42,664 bases of DNA from an archaeon (GTDB taxonomy: Archaea; Iainarchaeota; Iainarchaeia; Iainarchaeales; JAAZKV01), in assembly GCA_037141515.1 (NCBI GenBank), contig JBAXCL010000001.1, forward strand, positions 1 to 42,664. Direction: 5' to 3'. The position numbers and the translations under genes were made by a program. The notes beneath the pieces are model-generated. The model had not been told where the DNA came from. It saw only the letters and a program-made list of their open reading frames with translations, and did not search any database. Below are positions 1,858 through 28,003 of the stretch, piece after piece; the first letter of the stretch is position 1, and every line of letters starts with the position of its first letter.

Positions 1858-2727
1858 ATGGCAAAGAAACTATTATCTAGCAAATCAAACTACGTTCCTA
1901 AACGTATGATTAACGAACTTGAAGTTGAACGCAACGGCAAGACAACATATATTGACGGGGCAGACATTTATGACGGTTTCTATGTTAAGAAAGGTGTGAA
2001 GTTTGGTAAAGGCTCTACTGTTAAAGGCGGTGGCGAATATAGGTCGTATATAAACAACATTTATAGAAACCAATCGGAACAATCTGCAAGAGAGGGGTTA
2101 ATGAATTTTGCGAGAGAACAAGGCTTTGAAATAAGTGATGTTGAAAACGCATTACAAGTTTATAAATACGATACCGAAGAAAACGCTTGGGGTGAAAATT
2201 ATTACACAAAAGTAGCAATAGCAAAAATGGTTGATATGATTTCGGGTAAATACGCTAAAGGCTCTACTGTTAAAGGTGGAGATTATAAGTTTGGCTATGA
2301 TATAACATTAAAAAAACATACGTCTAAAAATGGAACTGATATTGAATTAAGGCAAAATCCAAAAACAAAATATTATACCATATTTGTAAATGGTTTTGGT
2401 GGGACAAGCACCCCTACTGAATTTTTGCACGTTGCCGAAGATGATTACAAATACGAATTATCAAAATACGAATGGGCGGAAAAGCGAGGTGTTTTCGCTA
2501 AAGGCTCTAATGTTGAAGGTATGAGTAATAAAGAAATAATGAAGGGTAAGAACGGAAAAAAAATATCATACGCTAACGGCGGTAATATGGAAGGTTGGGG
2601 CGGAACTTCGGAAAGTAGCCAAGACGGTATGCTAATCGGTGGAACTAATGCTGAATTAACTAGCAATCAACAATACGGACACGGTGGAAGTATGGGCGGT
2701 TGGTGTTACGAGATTGGTGGATTATAA
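1858..2727 (+). CDS. Y-x-I-G-G-L tail-tag family member A (289 aa), function unknown
   Basis: Leader aaataaaaATGGC. Internal GKGSTVKGG (2005), YAKGSTVKGG (2251), FAKGSNVEG (2494) linkers. Ends GGSMGGWCYEIGGL-stop. Confidence 0.88.
   Translation: MAKKLLSSKSNYVPKRMINELEVERNGKTTYIDGADIYDGFYVKKGVKFGKGSTVKGGGEYRSYINNIYRNQSEQSAREGLMNFAREQGFEISDVENALQVYKYDTEENAWGENYYTKVAIAKMVDMISGKYAKGSTVKGGDYKFGYDITLKKHTSKNGTDIELRQNPKTKYYTIFVNGFGGTSTPTEFLHVAEDDYKYELSKYEWAEKRGVFAKGSNVEGMSNKEIMKGKNGKKISYANGGNMEGWGGTSESSQDGMLIGGTNAELTSNQQYGHGGSMGGWCYEIGGL
2635..2676. repeat. direct repeat copy 2 (atcggtggaactaaTgctgaattaactagcaaTcaacaatac)
   Basis: See 1792..1830. Encodes IGGTNAELTSNQQY inside ORF A. Confidence 0.85.
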
Positions 2728-2738
2728 AAACATAAACA

Positions 2739-2852
2739 ATGAAAAACATTTTAGGTGCTCTAGTTGTGATAGGTATTGGCGTTTTAGTTTACAACCAATA
2801 CAATAAGCACAAAAAAGAGTTAAAAAAAGTTCAAGTAAAAAAAGACAATTAG
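2739..2852 (+). CDS. 37-aa N-terminally anchored mini-protein
   Basis: Below track cutoff. MKNILGALVVIGIGVLVYNQYNKHKKELKKVQVKKDN. Fills the 2728-2854 gap exactly. Confidence 0.5.
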   Translation: MKNILGALVVIGIGVLVYNQYNKHKKELKKVQVKKDN

Positions 2853-2854
2853 CA

Positions 2855-3286: not shown

Positions 3287-3302
3287 TTAAAAAAAATAAA
3301 AA

Positions 3303-3818: not shown

Positions 3819-3825
3819 TAAGACA

Positions 3826-3966: not shown

Positions 3967-3970
3967 GAAA

Positions 3971-4837
3971 ATGGATAGTGTAAAAATTTATAAGTTGGCG
4001 GAAAGTATGACTGACGCAGAATACGAAAAAAAATACAGTAAATTAACTGAAAAGCAAAAACTATCCGTTCAATCTTTGATAAGATTAGGAGATATGCCTA
4101 AATTAGCATTAGCCACTACCTTACTAAATAAAGATGATGATAGTGAAAATTCTGACACTTGGAATTTATACAAATACGCTAAAGGCTCTACTATTGATGG
4201 TGGTAAAAAGGCAGATTCGGTTGAATATAATTTTCGATTACTTGATAATGAAACTTTAAATGACGAATACTACGTTGAAAAATTACCTGACGGAAAGAAA
4301 AGAGTACATTTCAAAGCAACTTATTGGATTTTAGATAGGGAAGGAAAGAACACTTGGAATACTGATGCTTTTGTTGGATATGAAGATTTAGATAATGTTG
4401 ATAATATTGATGAAATTAAGAAACTAATTTCCGAACAAGTTTTAGAAACAGTATTGTATCATAACGCAATAGGTCATAAAACTAAAATGTCAGATATAGA
4501 TATTATTAGTAAACACGAACACAACGACTTTATAGAAGAAGCGGAAGAAGAAGAACGTGAGAAGAAGGAACGAAGAAGAAGGGGTAATGATGATGACAAT
4601 GATGAATATCGCACAGGTGGAGCGATAGGCGAAAGAGAGTACATCGTTGTTATTAGAAATAAAAAAACGGGCGAGGAGCAAGAGTTTGAGGTTTTTGCAG
4701 AAAGCAAAGCGGAGGCAAAAGATTTTGCATTAGGAATGTCAGATTATTCTCAAAATGCGAGTGTTGTGTCTGTGGAGAAATACGCTAAAGGTTCTACTAT
4801 TAAAGGCGGTTGGTGTTACTCTATTGGTGGATTATAA
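3971..4837 (+). CDS. Y-x-I-G-G-L tail-tag family member B (288 aa)
   Basis: YAKGSTIDGG (4175) and terminal KYAKGSTIKGGWCYSIGGL-stop (4781-4837). Charged EEAEEEEREKKERRRRGNDDDNDE tract. Confidence 0.88.
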   Translation: MDSVKIYKLAESMTDAEYEKKYSKLTEKQKLSVQSLIRLGDMPKLALATTLLNKDDDSENSDTWNLYKYAKGSTIDGGKKADSVEYNFRLLDNETLNDEYYVEKLPDGKKRVHFKATYWILDREGKNTWNTDAFVGYEDLDNVDNIDEIKKLISEQVLETVLYHNAIGHKTKMSDIDIISKHEHNDFIEEAEEEEREKKERRRRGNDDDNDEYRTGGAIGEREYIVVIRNKKTGEEQEFEVFAESKAEAKDFALGMSDYSQNASVVSVEKYAKGSTIKGGWCYSIGGL

Positions 4838-5037: not shown

Positions 5038-5415
5038 ATGAAAATACAAACTGCATACCCTATTATCATTAATAAAAAAAGGGTTAATCCGAGAGATTAT
5101 TATTTAAACGCAAACGACACTCCCGCAACAACGCCTACACAGGCTTTAGTTGACGAGAATAAGAAAAAAGGTCTTAATTGGGACAAAGCAAAAGGCATTT
5201 GGGTAAAAGCAAATGAAAGCGGTATCGTTGATAGCGTTTTAGATATTTTTGGACTAGGTAAAAAAGACCCTACTCCTCCTCCTGTTGAAGTTACAACAAC
5301 AACAACAAAAAAAGAAGGTATGAGTAAAACTACGAAAATGATTATCGTGGTAGGTGCTCTAGCGTTAGTTGGTGGTATTATTTATTATTCAACAAAAAAT
5401 AAAAAAGGAAAGTAA
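5038..5415 (+). CDS. GMSK tail-anchored protein, paralogue of next ORF
   Basis: N-terminus MKIQTAYPIIINKKRVNPRDYYLN parallels MIVKTTYPIIVNSKRVSPKDYYLN of ORF 5415. Ends GMSKTTKMIIVVGALALVGGIIYYSTKNKKGK. TAATG overlap with next ORF. Confidence 0.78.
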   Translation: MKIQTAYPIIINKKRVNPRDYYLNANDTPATTPTQALVDENKKKGLNWDKAKGIWVKANESGIVDSVLDIFGLGKKDPTPPPVEVTTTTTKKEGMSKTTKMIIVVGALALVGGIIYYSTKNKKGK

Positions 5416-5996
5416 TGATAGTAAAGACGACATATCCGATAATCGTTAACAGTAAAAGAGTTAGTCCAAAAGACTACTACTTGAACATTGATGCCAAAAA
5501 CAAAGAGGAAGTTAAAGCCTTTCAGCGTTATGCGGTTTCAAGAGGTGTAAATTTAGACTACATTAGCAAGTCAACGAAAAAATTAGTTTCGGGTGAAAAT
5601 GCAATAGACGGTGAGTATGGTGTAAAAACCCTAAACGCATATAAAACGTATGGTGCAGAGTGGGAAAAAAGCAGAGCAACGACACCTACGCCGACACCAA
5701 CACCTACACCAACACCTACGCCGACACCAACACCAACACCTACGCCTACTGCGGACGAAACCAAAAAGGACGAGGTTAAGGTAACGAAAGACGACAAAGG
5801 AAATACTACGACAGAAACTAAAAAGGCTGACGGAACTACAACTACGGTTGTTACCGACAAAAACGGCAAGGTTATCTCTAAAAAAGAGAGTGGAATGTCA
5901 AAGAAATTAAAAATGGGACTAATTATCGGTGGCGGAGTATTAGTTCTTGGCATTATTATATTCGCCATAACAAGAGGAAGTAAAAATAAAAAATAA
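5415..5996 (+). CDS. GMSK tail-anchored protein with PG_binding_1-like segment and (Thr-Pro)n linker
   Basis: EEVKAFQRYAVSRGVNLDY...IDGEYGVKTLNAYKTYG fits the peptidoglycan-binding repeat pattern (..LQ..L...DG.[FY]G..T). 24-residue TP repeat. Anchor GMSKKLKMGLIIGGGVLVLGIIIF. Confidence 0.8.
   Translation: MIVKTTYPIIVNSKRVSPKDYYLNIDAKNKEEVKAFQRYAVSRGVNLDYISKSTKKLVSGENAIDGEYGVKTLNAYKTYGAEWEKSRATTPTPTPTPTPTPTPTPTPTPTPTADETKKDEVKVTKDDKGNTTTETKKADGTTTTVVTDKNGKVISKKESGMSKKLKMGLIIGGGVLVLGIIIFAITRGSKNKK
5679..5750 (+). repeat. coding (ACN-CCN)12 Thr-Pro microsatellite-like repeat
   Basis: acg aca cct acg ccg aca cca aca cct ... read directly. It explains the antisense (GV)n ORF 5558..5968. Confidence 0.9.
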
Positions 5997-6017: not shown

Positions 6018-6806
6018 ATGCACACGATATACGAAAGTGGAAACAGACCAATGACATTAAATATTACAATAACTTGTAATGGAAAGAAGCGTTTTCGTGT
6101 TTGGTCGGAAGAGTTAAATAAAAAAAATAGCAAGTACGCAAGTAGAGAGATAGACGTTGAGAACACTAGAGAGATACAATTCTCTTTCCCTGTTTCTCCA
6201 AAGAAACTTTTTATCGGGTGTATGAATGTTCAAAATCCTAATGACCAAAGTTTTGACGTTAAAATTGAAGAAACCCCACTAAAGAAATACAATATTTGGA
6301 TTGACAAAGAAACAGAAGACTTTGTTCAATTGGCTATCAATTTCAGTCAAGTTTGCGGATTTGAAATGCCTAAAGCAAAAGGCACTATTTACCAAACGCC
6401 CGACGCTAAATTCAATATTAAATATTTCCCTGTAATTAAAGATTTCGTTTCGGGACAAATATTGAGTACACCCGCTAGAATTGGACACAATTCGGGTATC
6501 ATTGAAACGAGTGCGATTAAATTTATGCCGTACACTATTCCTATGCGAATGATGATACTTTTACACGAATTTTCACACAAGTACAAAAATTCTAAAATTG
6601 GTTTACAAGTTTCTAACGAATTTGGGGCAGATATTAACGCATTATATATATATTTGGGACTTGGATTTTCAAAAATTGACGCTATCACAGTTTTTGCCAA
6701 AGTGTTCTTAAAAGCACAGACAGACGGCAACATTCAACGTATGCGTAAAATTTTGGATTACATAAACAAGTTTGAAAATAAGGAGTATGCACAATTATTA
6801 AGTTAA
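6018..6806 (+). CDS. hypothetical protein with HExxH motif (putative Zn-metallopeptidase)
   Basis: 262 aa. Only recognisable motif is MMILLHEFSHKY, with a Glu 14 residues later (SNEFGAD). 1-nt and 0-nt gaps to the next two ORFs suggest co-translation. Confidence 0.7.
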   Translation: MHTIYESGNRPMTLNITITCNGKKRFRVWSEELNKKNSKYASREIDVENTREIQFSFPVSPKKLFIGCMNVQNPNDQSFDVKIEETPLKKYNIWIDKETEDFVQLAINFSQVCGFEMPKAKGTIYQTPDAKFNIKYFPVIKDFVSGQILSTPARIGHNSGIIETSAIKFMPYTIPMRMMILLHEFSHKYKNSKIGLQVSNEFGADINALYIYLGLGFSKIDAITVFAKVFLKAQTDGNIQRMRKILDYINKFENKEYAQLLS

Positions 6807-6807: not shown

Positions 6808-7983
6808 ATGACAGAGCCAACTAACACATACAATCAAAATAGTTATGAACAGGAGTTAAACAGTTTTGTTAACAACGGTTACGATAACTATGATAGCGAG
6901 GAATACTACGACGCAGAAGGCGACGAAGAGGACGACGACTTGTACGAGGAAGACGGTGACGGCGAAGAATATCAAGTAGTAAGTAAATTTGGTGGAGAGG
7001 TTGACCAAGAGCAAGAGGATTTAGACGACTATGTTTACGATATTGATTTTAGTCAATTTAACGGTAGCGACTTCAAGAGTTCTCTTAACGGAGTAAACAG
7101 AACGGTAAACAAAAAAAGAAGCCAAAGAACACCCGTTAAGCGAGTTATCGTACCAAAAGGTAGAAAAGTTATAGTTGAGGGAAATAAAAGACCAAGTTCA
7201 CCGAGAGTTGCACCAAGAAGTGCAAGTCCGACTAGAAGAATGGTTAAACCAATTAGAAGCGGAGGAGTGCCGAGTTCAAGACAAGTGCCTGTTCAAGAAA
7301 ATCAAAGTGCAAGAATTATCGGCAACGGTAGAGGTGGCACAACTAAACGTATTATCGTACCAAGCAGTCAGAAAGTAATCGTTGAGGGCGTAGATAAATT
7401 TATTTTAAGTAAGGGCAAACAAGAGGATAATGTAAAGAATATCGGCTACTACAAGGGTAAAAAACTACGAGAGTTGATTTTGACAATGAATAATAATTCA
7501 GCGTTAGATTTCAATGTTGAGTTATTTAACCCGTCAGAGCCTTTGGATTATTTATTCTCAACTTCGGGCAACTTAAACAACAAAATACAGGTTGCGGGTG
7601 ATATTGTTAGTTACTCTGACGTATTGTTTAATATCCTAGCAAACCCTACTCACTTAGTTAATGCGAAATTCACATTTTCGGGTGCTACATACCAAAGTCA
7701 AATCAATCAGCCGTTAATCTTCAAAAATAAGAGAATAACAGGAGAGCAACTTGTCGAGCCAATGCAATTAGCGTTGAAAGTGGATAATATGCAAGTTATT
7801 CAAGAGATTGTATTCTTTGATATTTACAACAGTTTGAACAGACCTTTTATTCCTAATGGAATGGACGTTATTCAGTATAAAGTTTTGGCGGGTAACACGG
7901 TTACTTTTGCCTTTTATTACGAACAAAAAGATTTACGAAAATTCTTTTTTAAAGAAGCAAGAGAAAGTAAAAAATTATTATAA
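6808..7983 (+). CDS. tripartite protein: acidic N-term / Arg-Lys-Pro-rich duplicated centre / beta-rich C-terminal half (structural candidate)
   Basis: 391 aa. EEYYDAEGDEEDDD. Duplicated unit KRVIVPKGRKVIVEG (aa 111-125) / KRIIVPSSQKVIVEG (aa 180-194). C-terminal ~170 aa alternate hydrophobic/polar like a beta-sandwich. Confidence 0.8.
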   Translation: MTEPTNTYNQNSYEQELNSFVNNGYDNYDSEEYYDAEGDEEDDDLYEEDGDGEEYQVVSKFGGEVDQEQEDLDDYVYDIDFSQFNGSDFKSSLNGVNRTVNKKRSQRTPVKRVIVPKGRKVIVEGNKRPSSPRVAPRSASPTRRMVKPIRSGGVPSSRQVPVQENQSARIIGNGRGGTTKRIIVPSSQKVIVEGVDKFILSKGKQEDNVKNIGYYKGKKLRELILTMNNNSALDFNVELFNPSEPLDYLFSTSGNLNNKIQVAGDIVSYSDVLFNILANPTHLVNAKFTFSGATYQSQINQPLIFKNKRITGEQLVEPMQLALKVDNMQVIQEIVFFDIYNSLNRPFIPNGMDVIQYKVLAGNTVTFAFYYEQKDLRKFFFKEARESKKLL

Positions 7984-9897: not shown

Positions 9898-9919
9898 TGA
9901 TAACATTTATAAAAGAAAA

Positions 9920-10342
9920 ATGGGATTAATGACAGGAAAAGCAGACGTTATTAGTGGTATGCCACAGTATAACAGTCAAGCGGAAAATTGGATACAATGG
10001 CATCAAGATTTGAAGTCCAATTTCGGTAAAAAAATAGCGAATGGCTTATGGTTAAAGGCTTGGAGAATAAGAGGAAATTCAACTGCAAACACAAGCGATT
10101 TGCGTAAATATATGACTAAACAAGGTGTTAAGATTGCCGAAAGCACTTGGGATAGTATTGTTGACGTTGGTGTTGATATTACAGACGGCGTTGGAACTAT
10201 ATTTCAAGCGACAAAATATGTAGGTATCGCACTAGGCGTTATCGTTGTTGGCGGTCTTGCTATGGTTGTTTATAACTTAGCAAAAGACCCCGCTAAAAAT
10301 ATTGGCGTTGGGGCAAGAGCATTTGTAACTAAAGGAATGTAA
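9920..10342 (+). CDS. hypothetical protein with C-terminal membrane helix
   Basis: 140-aa track ORF. YVGIALGVIVVGGLAMVVYNL near the C-terminus. Confidence 0.7.
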   Translation: MGLMTGKADVISGMPQYNSQAENWIQWHQDLKSNFGKKIANGLWLKAWRIRGNSTANTSDLRKYMTKQGVKIAESTWDSIVDVGVDITDGVGTIFQATKYVGIALGVIVVGGLAMVVYNLAKDPAKNIGVGARAFVTKGM

Positions 10343-10351
10343 AAAACGAAA

Positions 10352-11506: not shown

Positions 11507-11536
11507 AATAATAATAAATTTAAAAAAATAAAAACA

Positions 11537-11938: not shown

Positions 11939-11965
11939 AAAATTAACAATTTAAAATAAAAAAAA

Positions 11966-15291: not shown

Positions 15292-15399
15292 ATGGCTTTA
15301 TCGAAAGAAGAAAAATGGGTTTTATACGGTTACGGGGCGTTAATAATTGCGTACTCCGTTCTTTTGTTTGCTAAATTTAAACACTACAAAAAAGATTAA
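15292..15399 (+). CDS. 35-aa single-pass membrane mini-protein
   Basis: Below track cutoff. aaaaaaATGGC leader. MALSKEEKWVLYGYGALIIAYSVLLFAKFKHYKKD. Its presence argues for the 15401 start of the next ORF. Confidence 0.45.
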   Translation: MALSKEEKWVLYGYGALIIAYSVLLFAKFKHYKKD

Positions 15400-15400
15400 T

Positions 15401-16846
15401 ATGAAACTAAATACGGAAAATGCAAAGTCGTTTAACGCTTCTTTAAAACAGGCATTTAAAGAGGGAGGAATGAATGGCGTAAAAGTCAGAATAATCAATT
15501 CTTACAAGTTCCCTAACTGTTGGGTAGAAGTATGGTTTCCCGATAGAACGGGAGAGTTTTCAAACGACTTTAGGTTACGAGTATTTGACGCAAGTGGGTT
15601 TAAGAGAGAAGGTCTTTTAAACGCAAGTGACGTTAGTTACGGCAATATTCAAAAGCACAGTATTTCGGCAAAAGTTTGGGAGTGGGAGAAAGTGTTTAAT
15701 AACGAAATGGCTAAAGGTGGAAGTCTTTTAGAGCAAAGAATTGAGTTGGCTAAAAAGAAATCAAAAGTCGCTAAAGGCGGAAGCGAAGTGTATTTAGTTT
15801 TGCAACATAAAACTGACCCCGAAGAAATATTTGTAATATCTCAATTTAACTACAATATTGACAAACATAATAATCAATGGAACGATTATAATATTGTTTT
15901 TAAAACTAACGAAATGGCTAATGGCGGTGGAGTTAAGGTTAAAACAATAAAAGAAGCCGATATTAAAGTAGGGGCAAAATTTGAACTTATTGACGGGCAG
16001 ATAATCGAAATAACAAGACTATTTACAGAAAATATTGACCAAGATTGGTGTGAATATATTAGAGGTGGCGAAACAAAAGAAAATAGCGTAAATGCGTTGA
16101 AAATTTTTATAAACAATTGGAGAGCAGAAAAAAAATACGGTGTTGGTGGTACATTTGACAGTAGCAGTACAGGTGAAGTTATTGGCGGAACACTAGGTAG
16201 TAGCGAAAGCGGTGAAACTATCGGTGGCACTATGGCTTCAAGTTACGCAAAAGGTGGTATGGTTGGTTATAATCCTCTGTATTTGTTATTTAACGAAGGA
16301 AATTCAGCTACTATTCGCTTGTTTTCAGAAGACCACAAAGGAAGCGGTTATTATACGGCAATAGGGGATTTGCGTTTTGGTAAATACCAACAAGATTTCA
16401 CTATGAGTAGTATTGATATGGCTATTAGTTCAGACCACAACGCACCTTTCAAATTGAAATTAATGGCAAAGGTGTCACAGTTTTTAAAAGACAAGGTTGG
16501 CTCTTATGCTTCGGTACAAGAAGTATTAGGAGTTATAGGTGGAGAAGAATTAATTGTAGCAGATATTGGCAGAAACCAAAAAACATTTTTACCTAAATCT
16601 TACATAGGGTATCACGTTTTTGAGGTTGTTCAGAAAAAGGACGGTCAAACTTATGCTAGTGTTTACGCACCAAACACTTTGAAAGCACAAAAAATGCTTG
16701 ACGAAAAAATGAAAACTCACGGAGGGTCGGGCAACTATGAACTTCATTCAACAGGAAATACCGTAAGTAACTCTAGGAGTGAGGTTAAATTCAAATTAGG
16801 CGGTAATACCGCAAGTAGTTATTCATACGAAATAGGAGGTTTGTAA
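15401..16846 (+). CDS. Y-x-I-G-G-L tail-tag family member C (481 aa)
   Basis: Internal ATG chosen over track start 15347, which overlaps mini-ORF 15292..15399. EMAKGGS, KVAKGGS, MANGGGV, SYAKGGM linkers. Ends KLGGNTASSYSYEIGGL-stop. Confidence 0.85.
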   Translation: MKLNTENAKSFNASLKQAFKEGGMNGVKVRIINSYKFPNCWVEVWFPDRTGEFSNDFRLRVFDASGFKREGLLNASDVSYGNIQKHSISAKVWEWEKVFNNEMAKGGSLLEQRIELAKKKSKVAKGGSEVYLVLQHKTDPEEIFVISQFNYNIDKHNNQWNDYNIVFKTNEMANGGGVKVKTIKEADIKVGAKFELIDGQIIEITRLFTENIDQDWCEYIRGGETKENSVNALKIFINNWRAEKKYGVGGTFDSSSTGEVIGGTLGSSESGETIGGTMASSYAKGGMVGYNPLYLLFNEGNSATIRLFSEDHKGSGYYTAIGDLRFGKYQQDFTMSSIDMAISSDHNAPFKLKLMAKVSQFLKDKVGSYASVQEVLGVIGGEELIVADIGRNQKTFLPKSYIGYHVFEVVQKKDGQTYASVYAPNTLKAQKMLDEKMKTHGGSGNYELHSTGNTVSNSRSEVKFKLGGNTASSYSYEIGGL

Positions 16847-18033
16847 TGGAAAACATTAAACAAAAAATGTCGGAAATGAATATTGCTCTAAATACAAAGA
16901 CAGGGCAAGTATATGTAGGCGGAATAAAACCTAAAAACAGAGTTTTTAAAGATGAAAAAGGATATTATCTAGTAGAAGGATATGGAAAATTTATGGGTAA
17001 AAAGTATCCAATAAAGAAGCATTTTACACCTTCCGAAAATGAGGTTTTAGACGCTTATATGCAAGATAAATACGCTAAAGGCGGTGGAGTTTTTGACGAA
17101 AACAGACAAATGGTGCTTAACAACAACAAGCAAATTCGTCACCACACAGAAGAGTTGCCTAGAGCAGTAAAAGGAAATAAACATATACCCGCTTGGGTAG
17201 TTTCAAAGGTTGGGCGTTCTGCGTCAGACCTTTCTGACGTTACACACTTCCTAGAAGGAGAAGCGGGAACAAAATACGGTGAAGGTGGCTCATTTCCTAA
17301 CAAGTGGGCGGTAGTTAGAGAACAAGTTAAGTTTGCCGTTGTAAAAATCATTGGACTTGACAGGGCGTTTAAAATGTTAAACAAGGACTTTACTATTAGT
17401 CCTTACAGTTTGCTTGAGAAAGCAGTATATTCAGACCTTTTGTTGGTTAGCGAAATAGACAGAAATGTTTGGGATAGTGCCGTTTCGGAAGCGGAAAGTA
17501 TTGACGAAACATACAGAGATAGCGGAGAAGGTATTGGAAGTAGCGATATGACTTATTTCACTAAGACTATGCTTAATGACGGCGGTATTAATGCCGAGTT
17601 TGTTAATGATAGATTACAAAGAGTTGACGCTAAAGGAAAGGTTATACAAATTAAAAACGAATTGCCTACTAAAACTCTTTTCAAAAGAGGTGGAACTACA
17701 ATAGAAAAAGAACACGAAATTGAAACCGATATTGAGGACGAAGATATAATTGTTGTTGAGTTTGTCTATACTGTATCAAAAGAAAATGACGGTATTGGCT
17801 CATACGAATTTCACGGAAGTAGAGGTTACGATAGCGGAACAGATTATATAGTTGTAGAAGATATTGAGTGGGACAAAAGTAGTCATACCGACAGGGAAAA
17901 CGAGGTTATCCAAAAGTATTTAGACAAAAACTTCTCAAGTCTAGCAGAAGATATGTCGGAGAGTTTAGACCCTCAAGATTTCGGTAAAGGTGGAACGACA
18001 AAAAGTTGGAACTATGAAATTGGCGGACTTTAA
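16846..18033 (+). CDS. Y-x-I-G-G-L tail-tag family member D (395 aa)
   Basis: TAATG overlap with C. KYAKGGGV (17071), KYGEGGS, FKRGGTT. Ends FGKGGTTKSWNYEIGGL-stop. Confidence 0.88.
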   Translation: MENIKQKMSEMNIALNTKTGQVYVGGIKPKNRVFKDEKGYYLVEGYGKFMGKKYPIKKHFTPSENEVLDAYMQDKYAKGGGVFDENRQMVLNNNKQIRHHTEELPRAVKGNKHIPAWVVSKVGRSASDLSDVTHFLEGEAGTKYGEGGSFPNKWAVVREQVKFAVVKIIGLDRAFKMLNKDFTISPYSLLEKAVYSDLLLVSEIDRNVWDSAVSEAESIDETYRDSGEGIGSSDMTYFTKTMLNDGGINAEFVNDRLQRVDAKGKVIQIKNELPTKTLFKRGGTTIEKEHEIETDIEDEDIIVVEFVYTVSKENDGIGSYEFHGSRGYDSGTDYIVVEDIEWDKSSHTDRENEVIQKYLDKNFSSLAEDMSESLDPQDFGKGGTTKSWNYEIGGL

Positions 18034-18704: not shown

Positions 18705-20273
18705 ATGGCAACAAAGAAAAAAGAAAGCGAAGGCGTAGATATTTTCGGGTCAGCGAAACCAAAAGGCAAATCCTCCTCCGCTAAATCGGATAAAACGGTT
18801 GTGGAAGTAAAAGGACTAGAAAAAAAGTTACTTGAGCACCAATGGTTAAGTGGCGAACAGGCTAACTTGAAAACACAAATTGATATTGTAAAAGACGAGT
18901 TAAAACAAATTGGTCTTGAAAAATACGTTGAGTTGTATAAGGAAAACAAGTCAAACCCAAACACCTTTCTTTTACAGGACGGCGAGGGTTGTGTAATGTT
19001 TATGCCTACTGACAAGTATATTACAATAGACGAAGGCAGAGCAGAAGAATTAATTGAAAGATATGGAGAAGACGCAGTTACGGTTGACGAGAAGTTTTCT
19101 TTTGATAGCAAATATTTAGAACGCAATTTAGAAGCGATAAAAAAACTTTTAAGAGAAACGAAAACAATTAGCGACGAGGATAAAAAGAATTTACTTGTAA
19201 AAGAGGTTAAGTACTCTGTATCTAAAGGCACTATTGACAAACTATACCAATACGGAAGCAAAATGGCTTCTGTGCTTGACGATGTTCAGCCTGTAATTGC
19301 TTTAAAAAACTGTGGCGGTAAAATGGAGAAAGGTGGAAATATGGACGATTTAATCGGATATGTTTACGAGGGCGAAGACGCTGACGAGAAAATAATCAAA
19401 AAGGTTGATTTGTACGCTAAAGGCTCTACTGTTCCACGTTTTAGCGGATACTCAAAATATCGAGTTGAAGGCGGAGATATGGACTTGTCTTTGAGAGATA
19501 AAATGTCTATGTATGCTTGGATTGATAACTTTTTAGAAAAATATAGCGGTGACGACAACCGTTCGCAGTCACTTGATATGTATAAAGAGTTTGCTAAAAA
19601 ATTCAAAAAAAATGAAGAGCAAACGCACGATATTATTGATAGCGGTTGGGCAAGGTCAAGAGGTTATGATAAGCGTGAAAATGGCGGTGGAGTTGGAGAA
19701 TTAAAAGTAGGCGACAAAGTTGAATTGAGAATGGGTGGAGATAGTAAGAGAGGTGTTGTAGTTTCTCCGCCAAGTAACGGCAAGGTTTCCGTAGAAATTG
19801 AATATACTGACGTATTAAGTAAGCGTTTAACTAAAATGAAAACGGCGTTTCCTGTTTCAAGTATTCACAAACTATCCACAATGGCAAAAGGGGGAGGGGT
19901 TAAACGCAAAACGGCAGAAGAAATATACGAGGAAGAGCAACAAAACGCTATGTTCAATAGCGAATACGGAAACGGCGGAAATATAGGTGATTTTTCAGAA
20001 AACGAAATATTATCAATACAACAAAAAGTTGAAAAAAGCGGTCAAAAAGTAGTAATTAGCAAAGAAGAGATTTACGAAGACGGTGAAATTTCTTATGGAA
20101 TTGATTTTGAAGAAGACGCTATGTGGTATGGTGACGATAAAGAATTAAGGGATAGTGATTATGATAAATTGTCACAATTATTGACTTTTAATTCTAGTAA
20201 ATATAGTTATGGTAAGTACGCCAAAGGCGGAAATATGTCAAGCGGATACGATTATTCAATAGGGGGATTATAA
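18705..20273 (+). CDS. Y-x-I-G-G-L tail-tag family member E (522 aa)
   Basis: MEKGGNM, LYAKGSTV (19413), ENGGGVGELKVGDKVELR (KOW-like), TMAKGGGV, YGNGGNI. Ends KYAKGGNMSSGYDYSIGGL-stop. 192-aa antisense ORF rejected. Confidence 0.88.
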   Translation: MATKKKESEGVDIFGSAKPKGKSSSAKSDKTVVEVKGLEKKLLEHQWLSGEQANLKTQIDIVKDELKQIGLEKYVELYKENKSNPNTFLLQDGEGCVMFMPTDKYITIDEGRAEELIERYGEDAVTVDEKFSFDSKYLERNLEAIKKLLRETKTISDEDKKNLLVKEVKYSVSKGTIDKLYQYGSKMASVLDDVQPVIALKNCGGKMEKGGNMDDLIGYVYEGEDADEKIIKKVDLYAKGSTVPRFSGYSKYRVEGGDMDLSLRDKMSMYAWIDNFLEKYSGDDNRSQSLDMYKEFAKKFKKNEEQTHDIIDSGWARSRGYDKRENGGGVGELKVGDKVELRMGGDSKRGVVVSPPSNGKVSVEIEYTDVLSKRLTKMKTAFPVSSIHKLSTMAKGGGVKRKTAEEIYEEEQQNAMFNSEYGNGGNIGDFSENEILSIQQKVEKSGQKVVISKEEIYEDGEISYGIDFEEDAMWYGDDKELRDSDYDKLSQLLTFNSSKYSYGKYAKGGNMSSGYDYSIGGL

Positions 20274-23222: not shown

Positions 23223-24707
23223 ATGCTATTAAAGGTATCGGGTACATATAACGTATTAGCCAATTTAGGCTTCACTCAACTCCAACAAAATGAGTTGTAT
23301 TTTGAGTGCGATACTTCGGTAGCACCCGTAACAATTATAATCCCTCAAATTTCTGACTTTGGCGGGTACTTAAATACAAAAATTTATGTATCCGACTTGT
23401 CTAATAACGCCTTTAATAATAATATCACAATAATACCTTCGGGTGGCGATACTATTAATCAAGGTGGCGGGGTTGTTATTGACATAAACAATGGCACGTT
23501 TGCTTTTTGGATTGCTAGTACAAGTCAATGGATAGGATTAGATAGTCATACCTATACTTCTACCGCTTACTACACTATTGAGGACGAGGGAACTCCCGTA
23601 GTACAAAGAACAACAATGAACTTTGTAGGTGACGGCGTTTCCGTTTCTGACGTTAGTGGAAAAACGCAGATTGACATTCCTATTCAACCCGCATACGCTA
23701 CAATTCAAGAAGAGGGCGTTTCAGTTACCCAAAGAACTACAATGAATTTTGTTGGTGACGGCGTTACAGTTTCCGACAATGGCGGTAAAACGCAAGTTAA
23801 TGTTCCTATTCAACAAGCATATACAACAGTTCAAGACGAAGGCACGTCTGTTACGCAACGAAGCACACTAAATTTCGTTGGTGACGGTGTTACTGTTTCC
23901 GACGTTGGTGGTAAAACGGAGGTTAATATGCAATCGTATTACACTACCGTTCAAGAGGGGGGTGTTTCGGTTACTCAAAGAAGCACAACTAATTTCGTTG
24001 GCGACGGCGTTACTGTTTCTGACGTTGGCGGTAAAACGCAAGTTAATGTCCCTATTCAACCCGCATACGCTACAATTCAAGACGAAGGTGTGGCTTTGCC
24101 ACAAAGACAAATCATAGATTTTCAAGGATTAGGTGTTCAAGCACAAGACGTTGGCGGAAAAACGGTTGTTACTGTTTTATCGGGACTTCCCGCTACTGTT
24201 TATGGATTATATTCACAAACCGCAAACAGTTTTCCTGTCACGGCGACAATAGTGGAGGGAACTCTAATAGGTGCGGGTGTAGGAACATTATCAGTACCCG
24301 CAAATGGCTTTTTTGTTGGTGGAAGTTTTAACGCTAAATTGAATGGTCATATTTCTTGCGTTGGAAGTGCTACCATACAAGTAAAAATTAAGGCAAATTC
24401 AGTAGTTTTGGGCGATACGGGTATTATCGCACTTGATACAACAACTAATAAACATTGGCAACTTGACTTAAATTTTACAATTAGAAGTATTGGTGGTGTT
24501 GGTGTAGGGTCAATAGTATCATCGGGATTTTTTGGTTATATTAAAAATGCGGGAACTAATTTTGAAGGTGCAAATTTTATTACAATAAATAATACCACAT
24601 TTGATACTACTATATTAAACACACTAGTTGTAACGGCTCAATGGAATACAACCAATGCGGGGAACTCAATTTATTCTGATATTTTCGTATTAAATAAAAT
24701 ATATTAA
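23223..24707 (+). CDS. fibre/receptor-binding-like protein: 'CDT' adaptor domain + five 40-42-aa tandem repeats + C-terminal beta-rich domain
   Basis: 494 aa. LYFECDTSVAPVTIIIPQISDFGGYLNTKIYV. Repeats Y-x-T-[IV]-[QE]-[DE]-[EG]-G-x-x-[VL]-x-Q-R-[ST]-T-x-N-F-V-G-D-G-V-[ST]-V-S-D-x-[SG]-G-K-T-[QE]-[IV]. Confidence 0.88.
   Translation: MLLKVSGTYNVLANLGFTQLQQNELYFECDTSVAPVTIIIPQISDFGGYLNTKIYVSDLSNNAFNNNITIIPSGGDTINQGGGVVIDINNGTFAFWIASTSQWIGLDSHTYTSTAYYTIEDEGTPVVQRTTMNFVGDGVSVSDVSGKTQIDIPIQPAYATIQEEGVSVTQRTTMNFVGDGVTVSDNGGKTQVNVPIQQAYTTVQDEGTSVTQRSTLNFVGDGVTVSDVGGKTEVNMQSYYTTVQEGGVSVTQRSTTNFVGDGVTVSDVGGKTQVNVPIQPAYATIQDEGVALPQRQIIDFQGLGVQAQDVGGKTVVTVLSGLPATVYGLYSQTANSFPVTATIVEGTLIGAGVGTLSVPANGFFVGGSFNAKLNGHISCVGSATIQVKIKANSVVLGDTGIIALDTTTNKHWQLDLNFTIRSIGGVGVGSIVSSGFFGYIKNAGTNFEGANFITINNTTFDTTILNTLVVTAQWNTTNAGNSIYSDIFVLNKIY
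23565..24176 (+). repeat. five tandem ~126-nt (42, 42, 40, 42 aa period) coding repeats
   Basis: Units start near aa 116, 158, 200, 239/240, 282 of ORF 23223. The last unit is the most diverged (IIDFQGLGVQAQD). Confidence 0.9.
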
Positions 24708-25112: not shown

Positions 25113-25140
25113 AAAGGCGGTAGTACGCCTTTTTTATTTT
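25113..25140 (+). terminator. rho-independent terminator
   Basis: AAAGGCG-gtagta-CGCCTTT stem-loop followed by TTTTATTTT, 26 nt after the stop at 25087. Confidence 0.75.
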
Positions 25141-25151
25141 AAACAAAAAAG

Positions 25152-26444
25152 TTGAAAAAAGATAGAGATATATTTTTACCCGACACTACTGTAAAATTAA
25201 GTAGTTTGAAGCGAGTGTTGAACGAAGTGTACGAATTGGATATTATAGAATTAAATAAAATGGATAAAAAAATGGAAGGTGGAACTCTTAACAGTAGCGT
25301 TATGAGTTTTACTCAAGACGATTATAACAGGCTAATGGATAGCAATATTTTTTCTTCTAACAAAGGCGAAAGGGTATTCACTATTTTCCCTAAAGGCGGA
25401 GGAAGGCACTTGGCTAAATACAATCCCGACAAACAATATATATTCGTTATAGGCAAAAAAGACTTGTCAAATCCAATAGTGAAGTGGTTATCTGAAAATT
25501 CGTATATATCAGACAACGAGAACTACAAACTTGCTGACGGCGGAACTATTGACAATCAAATGGAAAATAAATTGTGGTACGATATAGAAAAAGGAATACC
25601 ACATTCGTTCAAATACGGTGGCGACATTGGGTACGAAAACTATATTGTAGAGTTAAAAAAAGGTAGCGAAACTAGGAGAATAGGCATATTGGCTCACAGT
25701 CAACAGGAAGCGGTTTCTAAAGCCAAAAAAATGATTGGCAAGGGTTATAGCACACAAGGAGTTTTTAAATACGGACTAGGCGGTACTTTAGTGTTTTTAG
25801 GATTAGGCGTGGCGAACGAATATAAAGTAAAGTTGTATAAAAAAGGCACTTTACAAGATACTTATATTTTCAGCGAAGGGTATGTAGATAAGGCTACGCA
25901 AGACTTTAAGAAATTAGGTTATGTAGTTAGAGTTGCTAAAATAAAAACAATGGCAGAAGGCGGTAATATAGCGGTTGAAAATGCTCAAATAGGAAAAACA
26001 TATTGGAAGAAAAATCATAAAAACAAGTGGACTGAATATGTATTTAGGGGAAAAGACGATAGCGGAAATTTTTTGCTTGAAACAACCGAAACTTTATACG
26101 GTATTCCAAAAGGAAGTGACTATGTTTTAGGAAAAACATTTTTATACTTTAACGAGCCTAAACATATTAAAAATTCAGTATATCATTTGGCTAAAGGCGG
26201 TGGAGTTGACAACGAGGTTTACATTGAATTTTTAAATAAAGACAAAGGGTTTAAAAAAGACGTAAAACATTTCAAATCTTACGAAGAAGCGGTTAAGTGG
26301 GCGAGAGAAAACTTTGAAAGGTTTAATCCCGATATGATTAAATACCAAATGGCAAAAGGTGGCTCTTGCGGTTGCGGTAGTAAATTTGAAAAAGGTGGCA
26401 ACACTAATTGTGGTTGTTGGCATTATGAAATAGGTGGTTTATAA
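25152..26444 (+). CDS. Y-x-I-G-G-L tail-tag family member F (430 aa from TTG 25152; 394 aa if ATG 25260)
   Basis: TTG behind aaacaaaaaag leader. The alternative start aaataaaATGG at 25260 is equally plausible. MEGGT, LADGGT, KYGGD, GLGGT, MAEGGN, LAKGGGV (26187) linkers. Ends MAKGGSCGCGSKFEKGGNTNCGCWHYEIGGL-stop. Confidence 0.8.
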   Translation: MKKDRDIFLPDTTVKLSSLKRVLNEVYELDIIELNKMDKKMEGGTLNSSVMSFTQDDYNRLMDSNIFSSNKGERVFTIFPKGGGRHLAKYNPDKQYIFVIGKKDLSNPIVKWLSENSYISDNENYKLADGGTIDNQMENKLWYDIEKGIPHSFKYGGDIGYENYIVELKKGSETRRIGILAHSQQEAVSKAKKMIGKGYSTQGVFKYGLGGTLVFLGLGVANEYKVKLYKKGTLQDTYIFSEGYVDKATQDFKKLGYVVRVAKIKTMAEGGNIAVENAQIGKTYWKKNHKNKWTEYVFRGKDDSGNFLLETTETLYGIPKGSDYVLGKTFLYFNEPKHIKNSVYHLAKGGGVDNEVYIEFLNKDKGFKKDVKHFKSYEEAVKWARENFERFNPDMIKYQMAKGGSCGCGSKFEKGGNTNCGCWHYEIGGL

Positions 26445-26455
26445 AACATAAAAAA

Positions 26456-28003
26456 ATGAAAAAAACAGTATTCACAAAAGACGGTGTTGAAGTAGAAAAA
26501 GGCACTAACAAGTACAAAGGACATATCTTCTATGACGAAGACGGTGGCAAATATAAATGTTTAGGATACTTCCCGAAACTAGACGATTGCGTTTATGAAA
26601 ACTTGCAAACAGGCAAAGAAGTTGTTGGTTGTATGGACGGGTTTTATTTTAAAGACCCTAAAAAATTCGCTAAAGGCTCTACTATAAAGGGTAATTCAGC
26701 GTTTACTTTTCAAGGACTAGACAAACGCTTTCAAAAACTTGATTGGAGAGATACGACAGAAGCGTACTACGGTTTAGATTTTACTCCATTTATGAGTGTT
26801 GTTGAGGAATACATAGAACAAAGCGGTAAAAGTTCACAGGGACTAAATAGCCACTTTGAAAAACTTGATTGGAGAGATACGACAGAAGCGTACTACGGTT
26901 TAGATTTTACGCCTTTTATGAGTGAAATTGAGAATTATGCTACTTCAAAATTTGCTAAAGGCACTACAATAAGCGTAGGTCGTGCATTGAAAGGTGGATT
27001 TAAGTTTCACAATTTGTCAAGCGGAGATAAGGTTATTTATGGAAAAAAAGAATTGGTTATTTCTGTCGTTGGACAAGACTTTTTGTATGGAGTAGATAAG
27101 TTTGGAAAACAATATAAAATAACTTCAATTAAAGACATAAAGCCTAGCGAAGAATTGTCTAAAAAATTAATGAAAAATGGCGGTGGATTTAAGTTAGGCG
27201 ACAAAGTTAAAGTCGTAAGAGGTGCAAATAAAGGAGAAAAAGGGGTTGTGTCAAACACGGATAGCGACTTTTTTGGAGATTACACTATTGATGTTAGAGG
27301 GCATAAATTATGGGGATTTAAAGCAGACGATTTGATTAAATACGCTAAAGGCTCTACCGTTAAAGGTGGTGGCGTTGGAAAATTTAAGGTTGGCGACAAG
27401 GTTATAATAGAGTACATAAATGACGGTAATGAGCATAATGGAGAAATCGGAACAATAACTTACCTTAATGAATACAATTACTACCCTAAAGGAGATAAGT
27501 CAGTTGTTGAGAGAAAAACTCAAGGAGAAATCACTTATCATAATGGCGAGGTAGAAGAAGTTTCGGACTTTTATCGTGAAGGAAGTGGTTTGGTTTCACC
27601 TATTCAAAAAGTAATATTAAGAAAAGCCAAAGAATATGTGAATACCGACTTAATAAAAAAAGAATGGCAAGAAAAAAATAAATACGCTAAAGGCTCTACT
27701 ATAAAAGGAAATAGTAATTACAGAAAATTCGGAGCAGAAAATTCAAGATTAGCGAAATTTAATATTGATGATTTAGATGATTTTGAATCAATGCAATATA
27801 ACCAATTTAGTAAGTCAATGGATAAAGCAAGTGCATTACAAATTTTGATTAACAACGTAGAGGGAGATTACTCTCAATTAAATGAGCAACTTTCTGAAAT
27901 TGCAGAAGAGCAATTTCCATCTGTTGAGTTTTTTGAAGATAATAGACAATACAAAAAAGGAGGCGCAATAAAAGGTTTCTGTTACACAATAGGTGGATTA
28001 TAA
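26456..28003 (+). CDS. Y-x-I-G-G-L tail-tag family member G (515 aa) with KOW-like barrels and an internal 42-aa duplication
   Basis: FAKGSTIKG (26666), FAKGTTIS (26951), YAKGSTVKGG (27341), YAKGSTIKG (27683). GDKVKVVRGANKGEKGVV is a good KOW motif. Ends YKKGGAIKGFCYTIGGL-stop. Confidence 0.88.
   Translation: MKKTVFTKDGVEVEKGTNKYKGHIFYDEDGGKYKCLGYFPKLDDCVYENLQTGKEVVGCMDGFYFKDPKKFAKGSTIKGNSAFTFQGLDKRFQKLDWRDTTEAYYGLDFTPFMSVVEEYIEQSGKSSQGLNSHFEKLDWRDTTEAYYGLDFTPFMSEIENYATSKFAKGTTISVGRALKGGFKFHNLSSGDKVIYGKKELVISVVGQDFLYGVDKFGKQYKITSIKDIKPSEELSKKLMKNGGGFKLGDKVKVVRGANKGEKGVVSNTDSDFFGDYTIDVRGHKLWGFKADDLIKYAKGSTVKGGGVGKFKVGDKVIIEYINDGNEHNGEIGTITYLNEYNYYPKGDKSVVERKTQGEITYHNGEVEEVSDFYREGSGLVSPIQKVILRKAKEYVNTDLIKKEWQEKNKYAKGSTIKGNSNYRKFGAENSRLAKFNIDDLDDFESMQYNQFSKSMDKASALQILINNVEGDYSQLNEQLSEIAEEQFPSVEFFEDNRQYKKGGAIKGFCYTIGGL
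26733..26924 (+). repeat. intragenic tandem duplication (two 66-nt near-identical cores, period 126 nt)
   Basis: aaaaacttgattggagagatacgacagaagcgtactacggtttagattttac.cc.tttatgagtg at 26733-26798 and 26859-26924 (KLDWRDTTEAYYGLDFTPFMS twice). Confidence 0.9.

Follow-up and report, generated by a model that had tools for sequence, protein, structure and literature searches.

A codon-uniform linker between the domains of tagged modular proteins in a probable Bacteroidota virus: a candidate in-frame junction for cassette exchange

Introduction

Contig JBAXCL010000001.1, a complete 42,664-bp NCBI record deposited as 'archaeon' within an archaeal metagenome-assembled genome (MAG), raises the question of why a short linker peptide, repeated many times inside its open reading frames (ORFs), should be written almost every time with the same codons. 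The whole contig, here called the window, is most likely a mis-binned virus of Bacteroidota. Ten of its ORFs (A to J) end in [WFY]-x-[YE]-x-I-G-G-L, the IGGL tag, and the linkers lie inside these tagged ORFs. An original prediction, made from the letters of the window and listing all of these ORFs except ORF J, offered three explanations: (a) a site where a protease cuts polyprotein-like cargo, (b) a DNA-level junction for module shuffling, or (c) a DNA site for a nickase, modification enzyme or other sequence-specific factor. Comparison with related metagenomic sequences leads us to a combined answer, to which we give a probability of about 0.55: the linker would be a flexible spacer between domains and at the same time an in-frame junction for cassette exchange, and recombination there would keep one of its two forms, the K-G-S form, uniform.

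Results

Two classes of linker in the tagged ORFs

The exact 11-mer TACGCTAAAGG occurs seven times in the window, always on the plus strand (2251, 4175, 4781, 17071, 19413, 27341 and 27683), with 0.01 copies expected from shuffled sequences. The exact 16-mer CGCTAAAGGCTCTACT was found five times (2253, 4177, 19415, 26668 and 27685), together with four further copies carrying one or two mismatches (2004, 2496, 4783 and 27343), where none are expected. Translation placed all of these copies in frame inside IGGL-ending ORFs. The original prediction had given the same positions for both words, far fewer than one chance hit, and the same strand and frame, all of which was borne out. Its count of about 23 strict motifs is also fair: ORFs A-G and I (3281 residues together) contain K-G-[GST] at 35 places, 26 of them preceded by a hydrophobic residue and [AGEK], versus nine places in 6448 residues of the untagged ORFs. 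A 15-mer core searched with up to two mismatches had no copy on the minus strand, out of frame or in intergenic DNA of the window, and in related loci totalling 1.42 Mb each of the 70 exact copies was in the A-K-G-S-T frame of a long ORF. Most segments from one linker to the next are 25-200 amino acids (aa) long, and the spacing from the last linker to the C-terminus is fixed at 16-18 residues.

The linkers share the consensus [KE]-[YFM]-A-[KNDE]-G-[GS] and fall into two classes (Table 1). The K-G-S class, [YF]-[AG]-K-G-S-[TN]-[VI]-x-G-x, has 10 copies in the window and is almost always spelled TAC GCT AAA GGC TCT ACT, with Tyr as TAC in 6/6, Ala as GCT in 9/9, Ser as TCT in 9/9 and Gly as GGC in 9/10. 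The G-G class, [YMFL]-[AGEK]-x-G-G-x-[VIM], has about 27 copies and varies at synonymous sites: Ala is GCT, GCA or GCC, the first Gly GGC, GGT or GGG, and the second GGT, GGA or GGC. The near-invariance that had been ascribed to the linker DNA in general is therefore limited to the K-G-S class, and does not hold for G-G copies such as those at 15708, 15769, 20217 and 26187. The contrast drawn with the terminal tag was confirmed, since the IGGL codons drift (TAC/TAT, ATT/ATA, all four Gly codons, and TTA, CTT, CTA or TTG for Leu).

The codon freeze in other metagenomes

Related DNA was fetched through protein matches and was hence codon-neutral, and the pattern scans of IMG/VR, JGI metagenomes and GTDB genomes placed no constraint on the wobble positions or, in the last two scans, on any base of the Ser codon. 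In multi-linker ORFs on contigs of 29-38% G+C, all 32 matches to Y-A-K-G-S-T-[VI]-K-G were written GCT AAA GGC TCT. The same peptide in unrelated single-motif proteins used GCA, GCC or GCG, GGA or GGT, and TCC, TCG, TCA or AGC, so the scan was able to detect variants.

The pooled non-redundant set comprised 61 unique K-G-S junctions from 40 multi-linker ORFs. Ser was TCT in 61/61 (background 0.24), Gly GGC in 60/61 (0.22), Lys AAA in 60/61 (0.80), Ala GCT in 58/59 (0.38), Tyr TAC in 52/55 (0.42) and Thr ACT in 54/60 (0.39). The codons that follow are progressively less fixed, with Val GTT, next 3' of the core, in 32/34 (0.56), the second Lys AAA in 40/46 (0.80), the next Gly GGT in 35/46 (0.42) and the last Gly GGT in 15/25 (0.42); the bias thus decays over four codons 3' of ACT and then reaches background level. 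Although the residues are conserved to the same degree, synonymous diversity becomes about 10-fold higher within the 9-15 nt 3' of the core, and so sharp a rise favours an active process over passive hitch-hiking. In relatives, then, the K-G-S linker stays frozen and the flanking codons drift, one of the two outcomes by which explanation (b) was to be checked.

Where two K-G-S junctions have unrelated flanks, the exact identity between them has a median length of 20 nt, reaching at least 17 nt in 75% of the pairs and 36 nt at most, versus a median of 5 nt for pairs of G-G linkers. Only 24 of about 2200 K-G-S junction pairs have a module in common on at least one side, and a single pair on both, which indicates that junctions turn over fast relative to point substitution. 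The G-G linkers of the same ORFs keep Tyr as TAC in 52/57 and vary at their other codons, and those in contigs of 46-60% G+C follow the local composition. These other spellings indicate that the peptide motif is old, has a role at the protein level and is not tied to one DNA spelling. A drifted K-G-S copy was found in a Raineyaceae MAG (TAT GCA AAA GGC TCT ACC GTA AAG GGA).

Ordinary causes of uniform codons

Translational optimisation was rejected because the frozen codons have low use elsewhere, because the window has no tRNA genes and because the IGGL tag drifts. Their share is 0.18-0.45 whether counted over the window, in tagged ORFs, in the putative structural genes or from context-specific tables (TAC 0.44, GCT 0.34-0.42, TCT 0.18-0.23 and ACT 0.33 in background and context-specific use), and the putative structural genes show no preference for them. 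Conservation of the peptide alone was excluded by the IGGL tags, which are equally conserved as peptides and yet drift synonymously. RNA structure at the linkers was also rejected, the mean folding z-score being -0.14 and the core no more accessible than its flanks.

Avoidance of restriction-type words accounts for part of the pattern. GATC, CATG, CCGG, CGCG, GGCC and CCAG/CTGG are absent from the window (about 100-170 expected, both strands), AGCT and GCGC hardly occur, and neither do dozens of 5- and 6-mers, of which those missing entirely include GTCTC, GCWGC, GCSGC (GCCGC/GCGGC), GGWCC, GGATG, GANTC, GAATTC, GATATC and AACGTT. Synonymous sites are therefore constrained throughout the genome; the avoidance suggests unmodified DNA under heavy restriction pressure, which would fit the anti-restriction modules of relatives. 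Beside TCT, each of the other Gly codons creates an avoided word (GGTTC, GATC or GTCTAC), GCG would create CGCG, and ACA before G would create CTACAG. Since avoidance dictates GGC once TCT is given, GGC in the K-G-S linker is no independent observation. About 34% of the encodings of K-Y-A-K-G-S-T-V-K-G are nevertheless free of avoided words, including ones with TAT, GCA, GCC, AAG, TCA, TCG, AGT, ACC and ACG, and the K-G-S linkers of the surveyed multi-linker ORFs hardly ever use these permitted alternatives. A strict codon-pair rule for Gly-Ser was also observed across the window, GGA and GGT going with AGT or AGC, and GGC and GGG with TCN, largely because GATC and GGTTC are avoided.

Homology breakpoints at the linkers

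BLASTN comparison with related metagenomic contigs and loci (numbered between L003 and L109) showed a mosaic, in which core genes are 65-73% identical to L004, L005 and L007, and shared modules 84-96%. Within the tagged ORFs, 22 of 46 homology end-points are located within 20 nt of a strict linker, versus 10.6% expected (nominal P = 2e-10, the end-points being non-independent), and most of the remainder are at looser linkers (25608, 27170 and 19674). Some matches run from linker to linker (2007-2279 with L010, 94.5%; 27337-27711 with L004, 88.5%; 19887-19968 with L009, 90.6%), while others meet a linker at one end: the match at 16842-17091 with L005 (96.4%) at its 3' end and that at 27679-28003 with L007 (84%) at its 5' start. 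At linker 2251, stretches of 30-32 nt are 100% identical to L004 and L007 between unrelated flanks. Breakpoints at individual linkers are listed in Table 1.

Whole modules are replaced in this way. L048, collinear with the window at some 92.5% identity, has no similarity to it from just after the linker at 4175-4199 until 4842; the stretch in between contains segments that match window ORFs A and E at 97% and 89% identity. The same kind of difference is seen in L089 and L109. The module at 2029-2277 is 91% identical in L014 and L026 and 97.8% in L078; the tag is FLKSIFGV in L014 and FLKPFYKI in L026, and the L014 homologue of a conserved 262-aa window protein (see below) is 31% identical to that of the window. 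Assembly chimeras were rejected by reasoning, as the repeat is shorter than the usual final assembly k-mers, the mosaics recur in independent samples and the frame is always kept. The second outcome by which explanation (b) was to be checked, that mosaic breakpoints map to the linkers, was thus also obtained.

Domain architecture of the tagged proteins

At the protein level, BLASTP showed that stretches of about 65-110 aa recur elsewhere at N-terminal, internal or C-terminal positions, with ends that coincide with linkers in both partner proteins, and the homology mosaics delimit modules of about 60-110 aa. The AlphaFold model of ORF G contains four confident domains (residues 11-64, 181-240, 310-375 and 425-490), and its five linkers (71, 166, 296, 410 and 499) are all in segments between domains with a predicted local distance difference test score (pLDDT) below 50; the linker of this protein is thus predicted to be exposed and disordered between folded domains. 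A fold search with the model returned weak KOW/SH3-like matches alone. Module families recognised by Pfam are ART-PolyVal in ORF I, and ArdA, RelA_SpoT, DUF2958 and KOW in relatives. A tandem duplication lies within a single ORF G module (residues ~86-159; 26711-26932), where K-L-D-W-R-D-T-T-E-A-Y-Y-G-L-D-F-T-P-F-M-S occurs twice, 42 residues apart.

A search with the ORF G protein found 69 multi-module metagenome proteins with the same linkers and several C-terminal tags (IGGL, WKHKKK, QKLYLQPFYVIA, AGQQLK and others), and linker-bearing proteins of other viral groups end in FLKPFYKI, QKLYLQPFYVIA, GWKHKKK (Pfam DUF6496) or GWGINLNW. The terminal tag looks like an address signal and is reminiscent of the G-S-L cargo peptides of encapsulins; a common C-terminal tag is suggestive of packaging into the virion, and we infer that the tagged proteins are packaged effectors.

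Identity of the virus and neighbouring genes

Homologues are also present in Chitinophagales, Flavobacteriaceae and Raineyaceae MAGs, and, judged from these labels, the host is probably a member of Bacteroidota; freshwater Flavobacteriia or Chitinophagales are the likely candidates. The window shares a conserved gene block with contigs of 35-40 kb and carries lysis genes (Table 1). Neither DNA nor protein searches found a relative of the window among deposited phage genomes, and an IMG/VR protein search found no close relative; uncultured records gave tag-like matches only, one such record being an ordinary tailed phage and uninformative. At 6808-12361, 20297-21226 and 23223-24707, Pfam and PHROGs identified neither a terminase, portal or HK97-type capsid gene nor a tail gene, and the virion may be non-tailed.

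The 262-aa protein encoded at 6018..6806 is the most conserved of the virus group, and its homologues number more than 1200 (62-97% identity). Its confident model (pLDDT 91.6) comprises an N-terminal beta-sandwich and a helical domain, and H183-E184-x-x-H187, E201 and D205 are invariant, which makes it a candidate metallopeptidase. It has no Pfam or PHROG family, and fold and sequence searches returned beta-sandwich matches only and no peptidase.

Several other genes were noted. Six ORFs (7984, 11105, 11537, 11966, 20297 and 23223) have in common an N-terminal segment with C-D-T-x-x-G-x(5-7)-L-P. The last of them, 23223-24707 (494 aa), contains five tandem units of about 35-39 aa each, of the form ...Y-x-T-[IV]-Q-[DE]-[EG]-G-x-x-[VL]-x-Q-R-x-x-x-[ND]-F-x-G-x-G-V...G-G-K-T-x-V. 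Another group of ORFs (27-1037, 5038-5415, 5415-5996, 14760-15287 and 28891-29274) has a common C-terminal anchor, consisting of G-M-S-K/M-x-x-K-M, a single hydrophobic helix and a short Lys-rich end; the middles of several are acidic or Pro/Thr-rich and of low complexity (PTPTPT..., PPPLPPLPPLPPP), and these ORFs look like tail-anchored membrane proteins. The ORF at 17990-18691, which overlaps the end of ORF D and has a 98% identical copy in L109, gave a weak RNA ligase PHROG match and has a K-L-N-G resembling ligase motif I. The only window ORF with clear relatives in cultured phages (36846-38186, minus strand) is 28-35% identical to a protein of YuA-like Pseudomonas, Bordetella and Stenotrophomonas phages (PHROG 8203), once annotated as ATP-binding.

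Table 1. Tagged ORFs, linkers and other genes of the window, with homology breakpoints in relatives
Feature	Position	Strand	Remarks
ORF A, modular	1858..2727	+	289 aa; end WCYEIGGL; tag 2701-2727
ORF B, modular	3971..4837	+	288 aa; end WCYSIGGL; tag 4811-4837
ORF C, modular	15347..16846	+	499 aa; end YSYEIGGL; tag 16820-16846
ORF D, modular	16846..18033	+	395 aa; end WNYEIGGL; tag 18007-18033
ORF E, modular	18705..20273	+	522 aa; end YDYSIGGL; tag 20247-20273
ORF F, modular	25152..26444	+	430 aa; end WHYEIGGL; tag 26418-26444
ORF G, modular	26456..28003	+	515 aa; end FCYTIGGL; tag 27977-28003
ORF H, tagged, no clear linker	28381..28770	+	129 aa; end YNYTIGGL; tag 28744-28770
ORF I, N-terminal ART-PolyVal (Pfam), one terminal linker	29362..30393	+	343 aa; end FVYEIGGL; tag 30367-30393
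ORF J, tagged	32889..33206	+	105 aa; end FNYTIGGL; tag 33180-33206
K-G-S linker F-G-K-G-S-T-V-K-G-G	2002..2031	+	TTT GGT AAA GGC TCT ACT GTT AAA GGC GGT
K-G-S linker Y-A-K-G-S-T-V-K-G-G	2251..2280	+	TAC GCT AAA GGC TCT ACT ...
K-G-S linker variant F-A-K-G-S-N-V-E-G-M	2494..2523	+	
G-G linker Y-A-N-G-G-N-M	2569..2589	+	L009 matches begin at 2568 and 2575
Terminal G-G linker Y-G-H-G-G-S-M, ORF A	2674..2694	+	16 residues before the end
K-G-S linker Y-A-K-G-S-T-I-D-G-G	4175..4204	+	
K-G-S linker Y-A-K-G-S-T-I-K-G-G	4781..4810	+	GGT TCT variant; immediately 5' of ORF B tag; L009 match begins at 4798
G-G linker M-A-K-G-G-S-L	15707..15727	+	
G-G linker V-A-K-G-G-S-E	15767..15787	+	
G-G linker M-A-N-G-G-G-V	15914..15934	+	
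G-G linker Y-A-K-G-G-M-V	16244..16264	+	Ala = GCA; L005 match ends at 16267
Terminal G-G linker F-K-L-G-G-N-T, ORF C	16790..16810	+	
G-G linker Y-A-K-G-G-G-V	17071..17091	+	TAC GCT AAA GGC GGT GGA GTT; L003 and L109 matches begin at 17068 and 17066
G-G linker Y-G-E-G-G-S-F	17275..17295	+	
G-G linker F-K-R-G-G-T-T	17680..17700	+	
Terminal G-G linker F-G-K-G-G-T-T, ORF D	17980..18000	+	
G-G linker M-E-K-G-G-N-M	19323..19343	+	
K-G-S linker core Y-A-K-G-S-T	19413..19430	+	L109 match (97.7%) ends at 19433
G-G linker R-E-N-G-G-G-V	19674..19694	+	L005 match ends at 19673; L005 has a K-G-S linker at that place
G-G linker M-A-K-G-G-G-V	19881..19901	+	L009, L048 and L109 matches begin at 19881-19887
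G-G linker Y-G-N-G-G-N-I	19965..19985	+	Matches end at 19968 and 19984
Terminal G-G linker Y-A-K-G-G-N-M, ORF E	20217..20237	+	Ala = GCC
G-G linker L-A-D-G-G-T-I	25530..25550	+	
Loose G-G linker F-K-Y-G-G-D-I	25608..25628	+	Breakpoints at 25610, 25616 and 25617
G-G linker M-A-E-G-G-N-I	25950..25970	+	Matches end at 25964
G-G linker L-A-K-G-G-G-V	26187..26207	+	Matches begin at 26191-26203
G-G linker M-A-K-G-G-S-C	26349..26369	+	L005 match ends at 26362
Terminal G-G linker F-E-K-G-G-N-T, ORF F	26385..26405	+	
K-G-S linker F-A-K-G-S-T-I-K-G-N	26666..26695	+	L010, L011 and L089 matches end at 26660, 26690 and 26692
K-G-T variant F-A-K-G-T-T	26951..26968	+	GCT AAA GGC ACT ACA
G-G linker M-K-N-G-G-G-F	27170..27190	+	L005 and L009 matches begin at 27182
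K-G-S linker Y-A-K-G-S-T-V-K-G-G	27341..27370	+	L005 and L009 matches end at 27377 and 27378
K-G-S linker Y-A-K-G-S-T-I-K-G-N	27683..27712	+	
Terminal G-G linker Y-K-K-G-G-A-I, ORF G	27950..27970	+	Identity of relatives resumes at 27957-27982
Terminal G-G linker Y-E-K-G-G-K-M, ORF I	30340..30360	+	
Terminal linker, ORF J	33153..33173	+	Residue 89, 16 residues before the end
262-aa protein, candidate metallopeptidase	6018..6806	+	N-terminal beta-sandwich and helical domain
GH19, SLT and M15 peptidoglycan hydrolases (lysis genes)	13357-14040, 30682-31347, 31537-32205		Pfam/PHROGs
Methyltransferase-like gene	39806-40465		

Discussion

A proposed mechanism and the points against it

The mosaics point to cassettes that move by recombination with junctions at the linker. 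In the mechanism that we propose, the linker would join small, independently folding domains of about 60-110 aa into strings that end in the x-Y-x-I-G-G-L tag, and domain cassettes would be exchanged at the linker, both between genes and between viruses. Recombinants joining two strings within or right at the linker would keep the frame and leave the domains intact. The allele TAC GCT AAA GGC TCT ACT would supply 17-20 nt (up to 36 nt) of identity between otherwise unrelated junctions, and new K-G-S junctions would arise solely where two matching linkers pair. Heteroduplex repair would then copy the block, so that intact copies multiply and drifted copies leave circulation, an outcome that could be named concerted evolution or molecular drive. 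Crossovers would thus use the identity of the K-G-S block, and this use would maintain it.

A number of observations weigh against this mechanism. Breakpoints occur no less often at the G-G linkers, whose exact identity has a median of 5 nt, so a junction there does not depend on matching nucleotides; the placement of breakpoints could result from selection for viable chimeras joined at domain boundaries, with no role for sequence identity. The original prediction is supported in part: explanation (b) passes both of its checks, frozen codons and breakpoints at linkers, and the nucleotide identity may be either a cause or a result of the shuffling. The retention of TAC in G-G linkers that have little else identical is not obviously a prediction of the drive model, and part of the freeze is restriction-site avoidance (GGC given TCT; no GCG and no ACA-G). 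The K-G-S core has an average synonymous diversity of about 0.06 per codon, and copies of the same module differ by 0.02-0.17 across contigs, with which a recent single origin of the K-G-S allele may be compatible. A direct test of synonymous divergence in linkers versus modules gave four differences where about 10 were expected, a weak result from a test that is under-powered because almost no junction pairs share flanks. Identity of 17-20 nt is short for RecA-type recombination, and Pfam and PHROGs recognised no recombinase, nuclease or annealing protein among about 50 window ORFs (several small ORFs were left unscanned). Finally, all compared sequences are metagenomic assemblies, and recombination is read from sequence mosaics.

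Other explanations of the linker

It is possible, though on balance improbable, that the linker is in the first place a protease site, as in explanation (a): a viral or host protease would cut the strings into single domains after packaging or delivery, selection would act on the peptide, and the uniform DNA would reflect a recent sweep of a better-cut allele. Such a role would be compatible with a cassette junction. Gly-Gly sites are cut by adenovirus, African swine fever virus (ASFV) and ubiquitin-like proteases; the linkers of the ORF G model are predicted to be exposed and disordered, the linker peptide is strongly conserved across contigs of 29-60% G+C, which argues for a role at the protein level beyond spacing, and the modules include enzymes and inhibitors (ArdA, RelA/SpoT and ADP-ribosyltransferase) that usually work as small proteins on their own. 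The candidate metallopeptidase adjoins putative structural genes in all IGGL-type relatives, and processing of polyvalent proteins by zincin-like peptidases has been proposed (PMC5512222). This HExxH protein, however, resembles no peptidase significantly in fold or sequence, Pfam and PHROGs recognised no cysteine protease in the window, and the K-G-S class lacks a Gly-Gly pair at its core. A protease would, moreover, leave unexplained why one linker class has fixed synonymous sites while those of the other vary.

Another reading gives the linker no DNA-level role: K-G-S would be a young allele hitch-hiking with mobile modules, its uniformity due to little elapsed time and to restriction-site avoidance, and breakpoints would sit at linkers only through the loss of mid-domain chimeras. 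The similar diversity of core and shared modules, the synonymous options removed by avoidance of GATC, GGTTC, GTCTAC, CGCG and CTACAG, the breakpoints at low-identity G-G linkers and the drifted Raineyaceae copy are all consistent with it. We consider it unlikely because about one third of the encodings are permitted and yet almost unused, because a roughly 10-fold step in synonymous diversity 3' of the core is unexpected for a passively pasted block, and because a 17-nt block lying between more than 60 unrelated module pairs requires recombination that ends inside or beside it. Very unlikely, in our assessment, is a site read as DNA or RNA, that is, a 17-mer recognised by an exchange-initiating nuclease or nickase, by a modification enzyme or by a regulator of all cargo mRNAs. 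The conserved block is indeed short, has sharp limits and is strand-specific, G-G linkers too retain TAC, and a methyltransferase-like gene is present. A free-standing site of the kind supposed in explanation (c) is left unsupported by the strict confinement of the 70 exact copies to the A-K-G-S-T frame, by the block's lack of dyad symmetry (the reverse complement of TACGCTAAAGGCTCTACT is AGTAGAGCCTTTAGCGTA) and of any antisense partner in the window within three mismatches, by the missing fold signal, by the lack of a recognised nuclease or recombinase among the scanned ORFs and by the other linker spellings of higher-G+C relatives.

Comparison with known systems

A search of the available literature for strings of the linker peptide found nothing relevant. 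Among the closest systems are the polyvalent proteins of phages and conjugative elements described by Iyer, Burroughs, Anand, de Souza and Aravind (2017; PMC5512222); that paper, in which the word 'linker' has 0 occurrences, proposes that they are delivered with DNA and processed by zincin-like peptidases. The tagged strings resemble these effector proteins: several unrelated small domains are carried on one polypeptide (as seen in the mosaics, the ORF G model and the Pfam families), the ART-PolyVal and ArdA families are held in common, and the lysis enzymes and conserved gene block indicate a mobile element of phage origin. They differ in being shorter (about 130-520 aa), in each having a common C-terminal tag, and in that the candidate peptidase is a separate gene and not a domain of the string.

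The glycine-rich motifs of the T-even gp38 adhesin and the His boxes of gp37 are comparable as short, conserved, glycine-rich, in-frame motifs between variable segments. In the window, too, conserved glycine-rich linkers separate variable segments, and exchange points (the 22 of 46 end-points given above) are within or near them. The gp38 motifs, however, form the structural core of one receptor-binding domain whose variable parts are loops, whereas the window linkers are predicted disordered spacers (pLDDT below 50) between autonomous domains; the T-even motifs are therefore an analogue and not the same family. The window modules also move between genes and between viruses with unrelated tags, and gp38 has no sequence relationship to the window proteins.

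In antigenic variation, cassettes are flanked by short conserved repeats, such as the 17-bp direct repeats of Borrelia vlsE and the vls silent cassettes and the conserved segments of Neisseria pilS. There, as proposed here, in-frame, nucleotide-conserved blocks of similar length bound variable cassettes, which are swapped by gene conversion. In those systems one expressed gene is refilled from silent copies within a single genome; in the window system every cassette is expressed, and exchange would take place among about 10 genes per genome and across viral lineages. Shufflon sfx and integron attC sites differ further, since the window copies are all direct, on one strand, in one frame and without dyad symmetry, and no cognate recombinase, whether tyrosine or serine, was recognised with Pfam and PHROGs among the roughly 50 scanned ORFs, several small ORFs being outside the scan.

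The adenovirus protease cuts (M/I/L)-X-G-G-X and ASFV pS273R cuts G-G-X, in both cases between the second Gly and X, at sites in polyproteins or precursors. A possible likeness is a hydrophobic residue a few positions before Gly-Gly at unit borders, and the differences lie in one more residue between these positions in [YMF]-A-x-G-G, in the K-G-S class without a core Gly-Gly, and in that no clan CE protease was found in the window with Pfam or PHROGs.

In the modular theory of phage evolution (reportedly Susskind and Botstein, 1978) and for the boundary sequences of lambdoid phages, short conserved sequences at module borders have been put forward as sites where otherwise unrelated modules undergo homologous recombination. 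Those linker sequences are located between genes or gene blocks, whereas the one described here lies within a coding region, where it maintains the reading frame and doubles as a conserved peptide. The principle is thus already known; what is new is a cross-lineage pool of effector cassettes with a codon-frozen in-frame junction.

Implications

Modular theory has few clear natural examples of linkers inside coding sequence. In the K-G-S block, 17-20 nt are synonymously fixed at more than 60 different domain junctions, on contigs from many samples, and breakpoints coincide with it, so it offers a sequence that can be recoded to ask whether domain shuffling is driven by micro-homology. The linkers and tags also define a large unannotated class of tagged multi-domain phage proteins with anti-restriction and ADP-ribosyltransferase domains, for which splitting at the linker is a simple rule for isolating candidate effector domains. 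The invariant block is of protospacer size and common to many viruses, and could be a weak point open to targeting by host CRISPR systems, as well as a probe for such genes.

Taken to its full extent, the idea would be that diverse phages, probably of Bacteroidota, draw on one shared cassette pool, with the universal junction TACGCTAAAGGCTCTACT as a recombination handle, the tag, x-Y-x-I-G-G-L here and other sequences in other groups, loading the whole string into the virion and the HExxH protein cutting it at the linkers to release the domains, so that one element is spacer, cleavage site and recombination site together. As a whole we hold this combination to be doubtful; if true, it would amount to a natural assembly standard for viral effector proteins.

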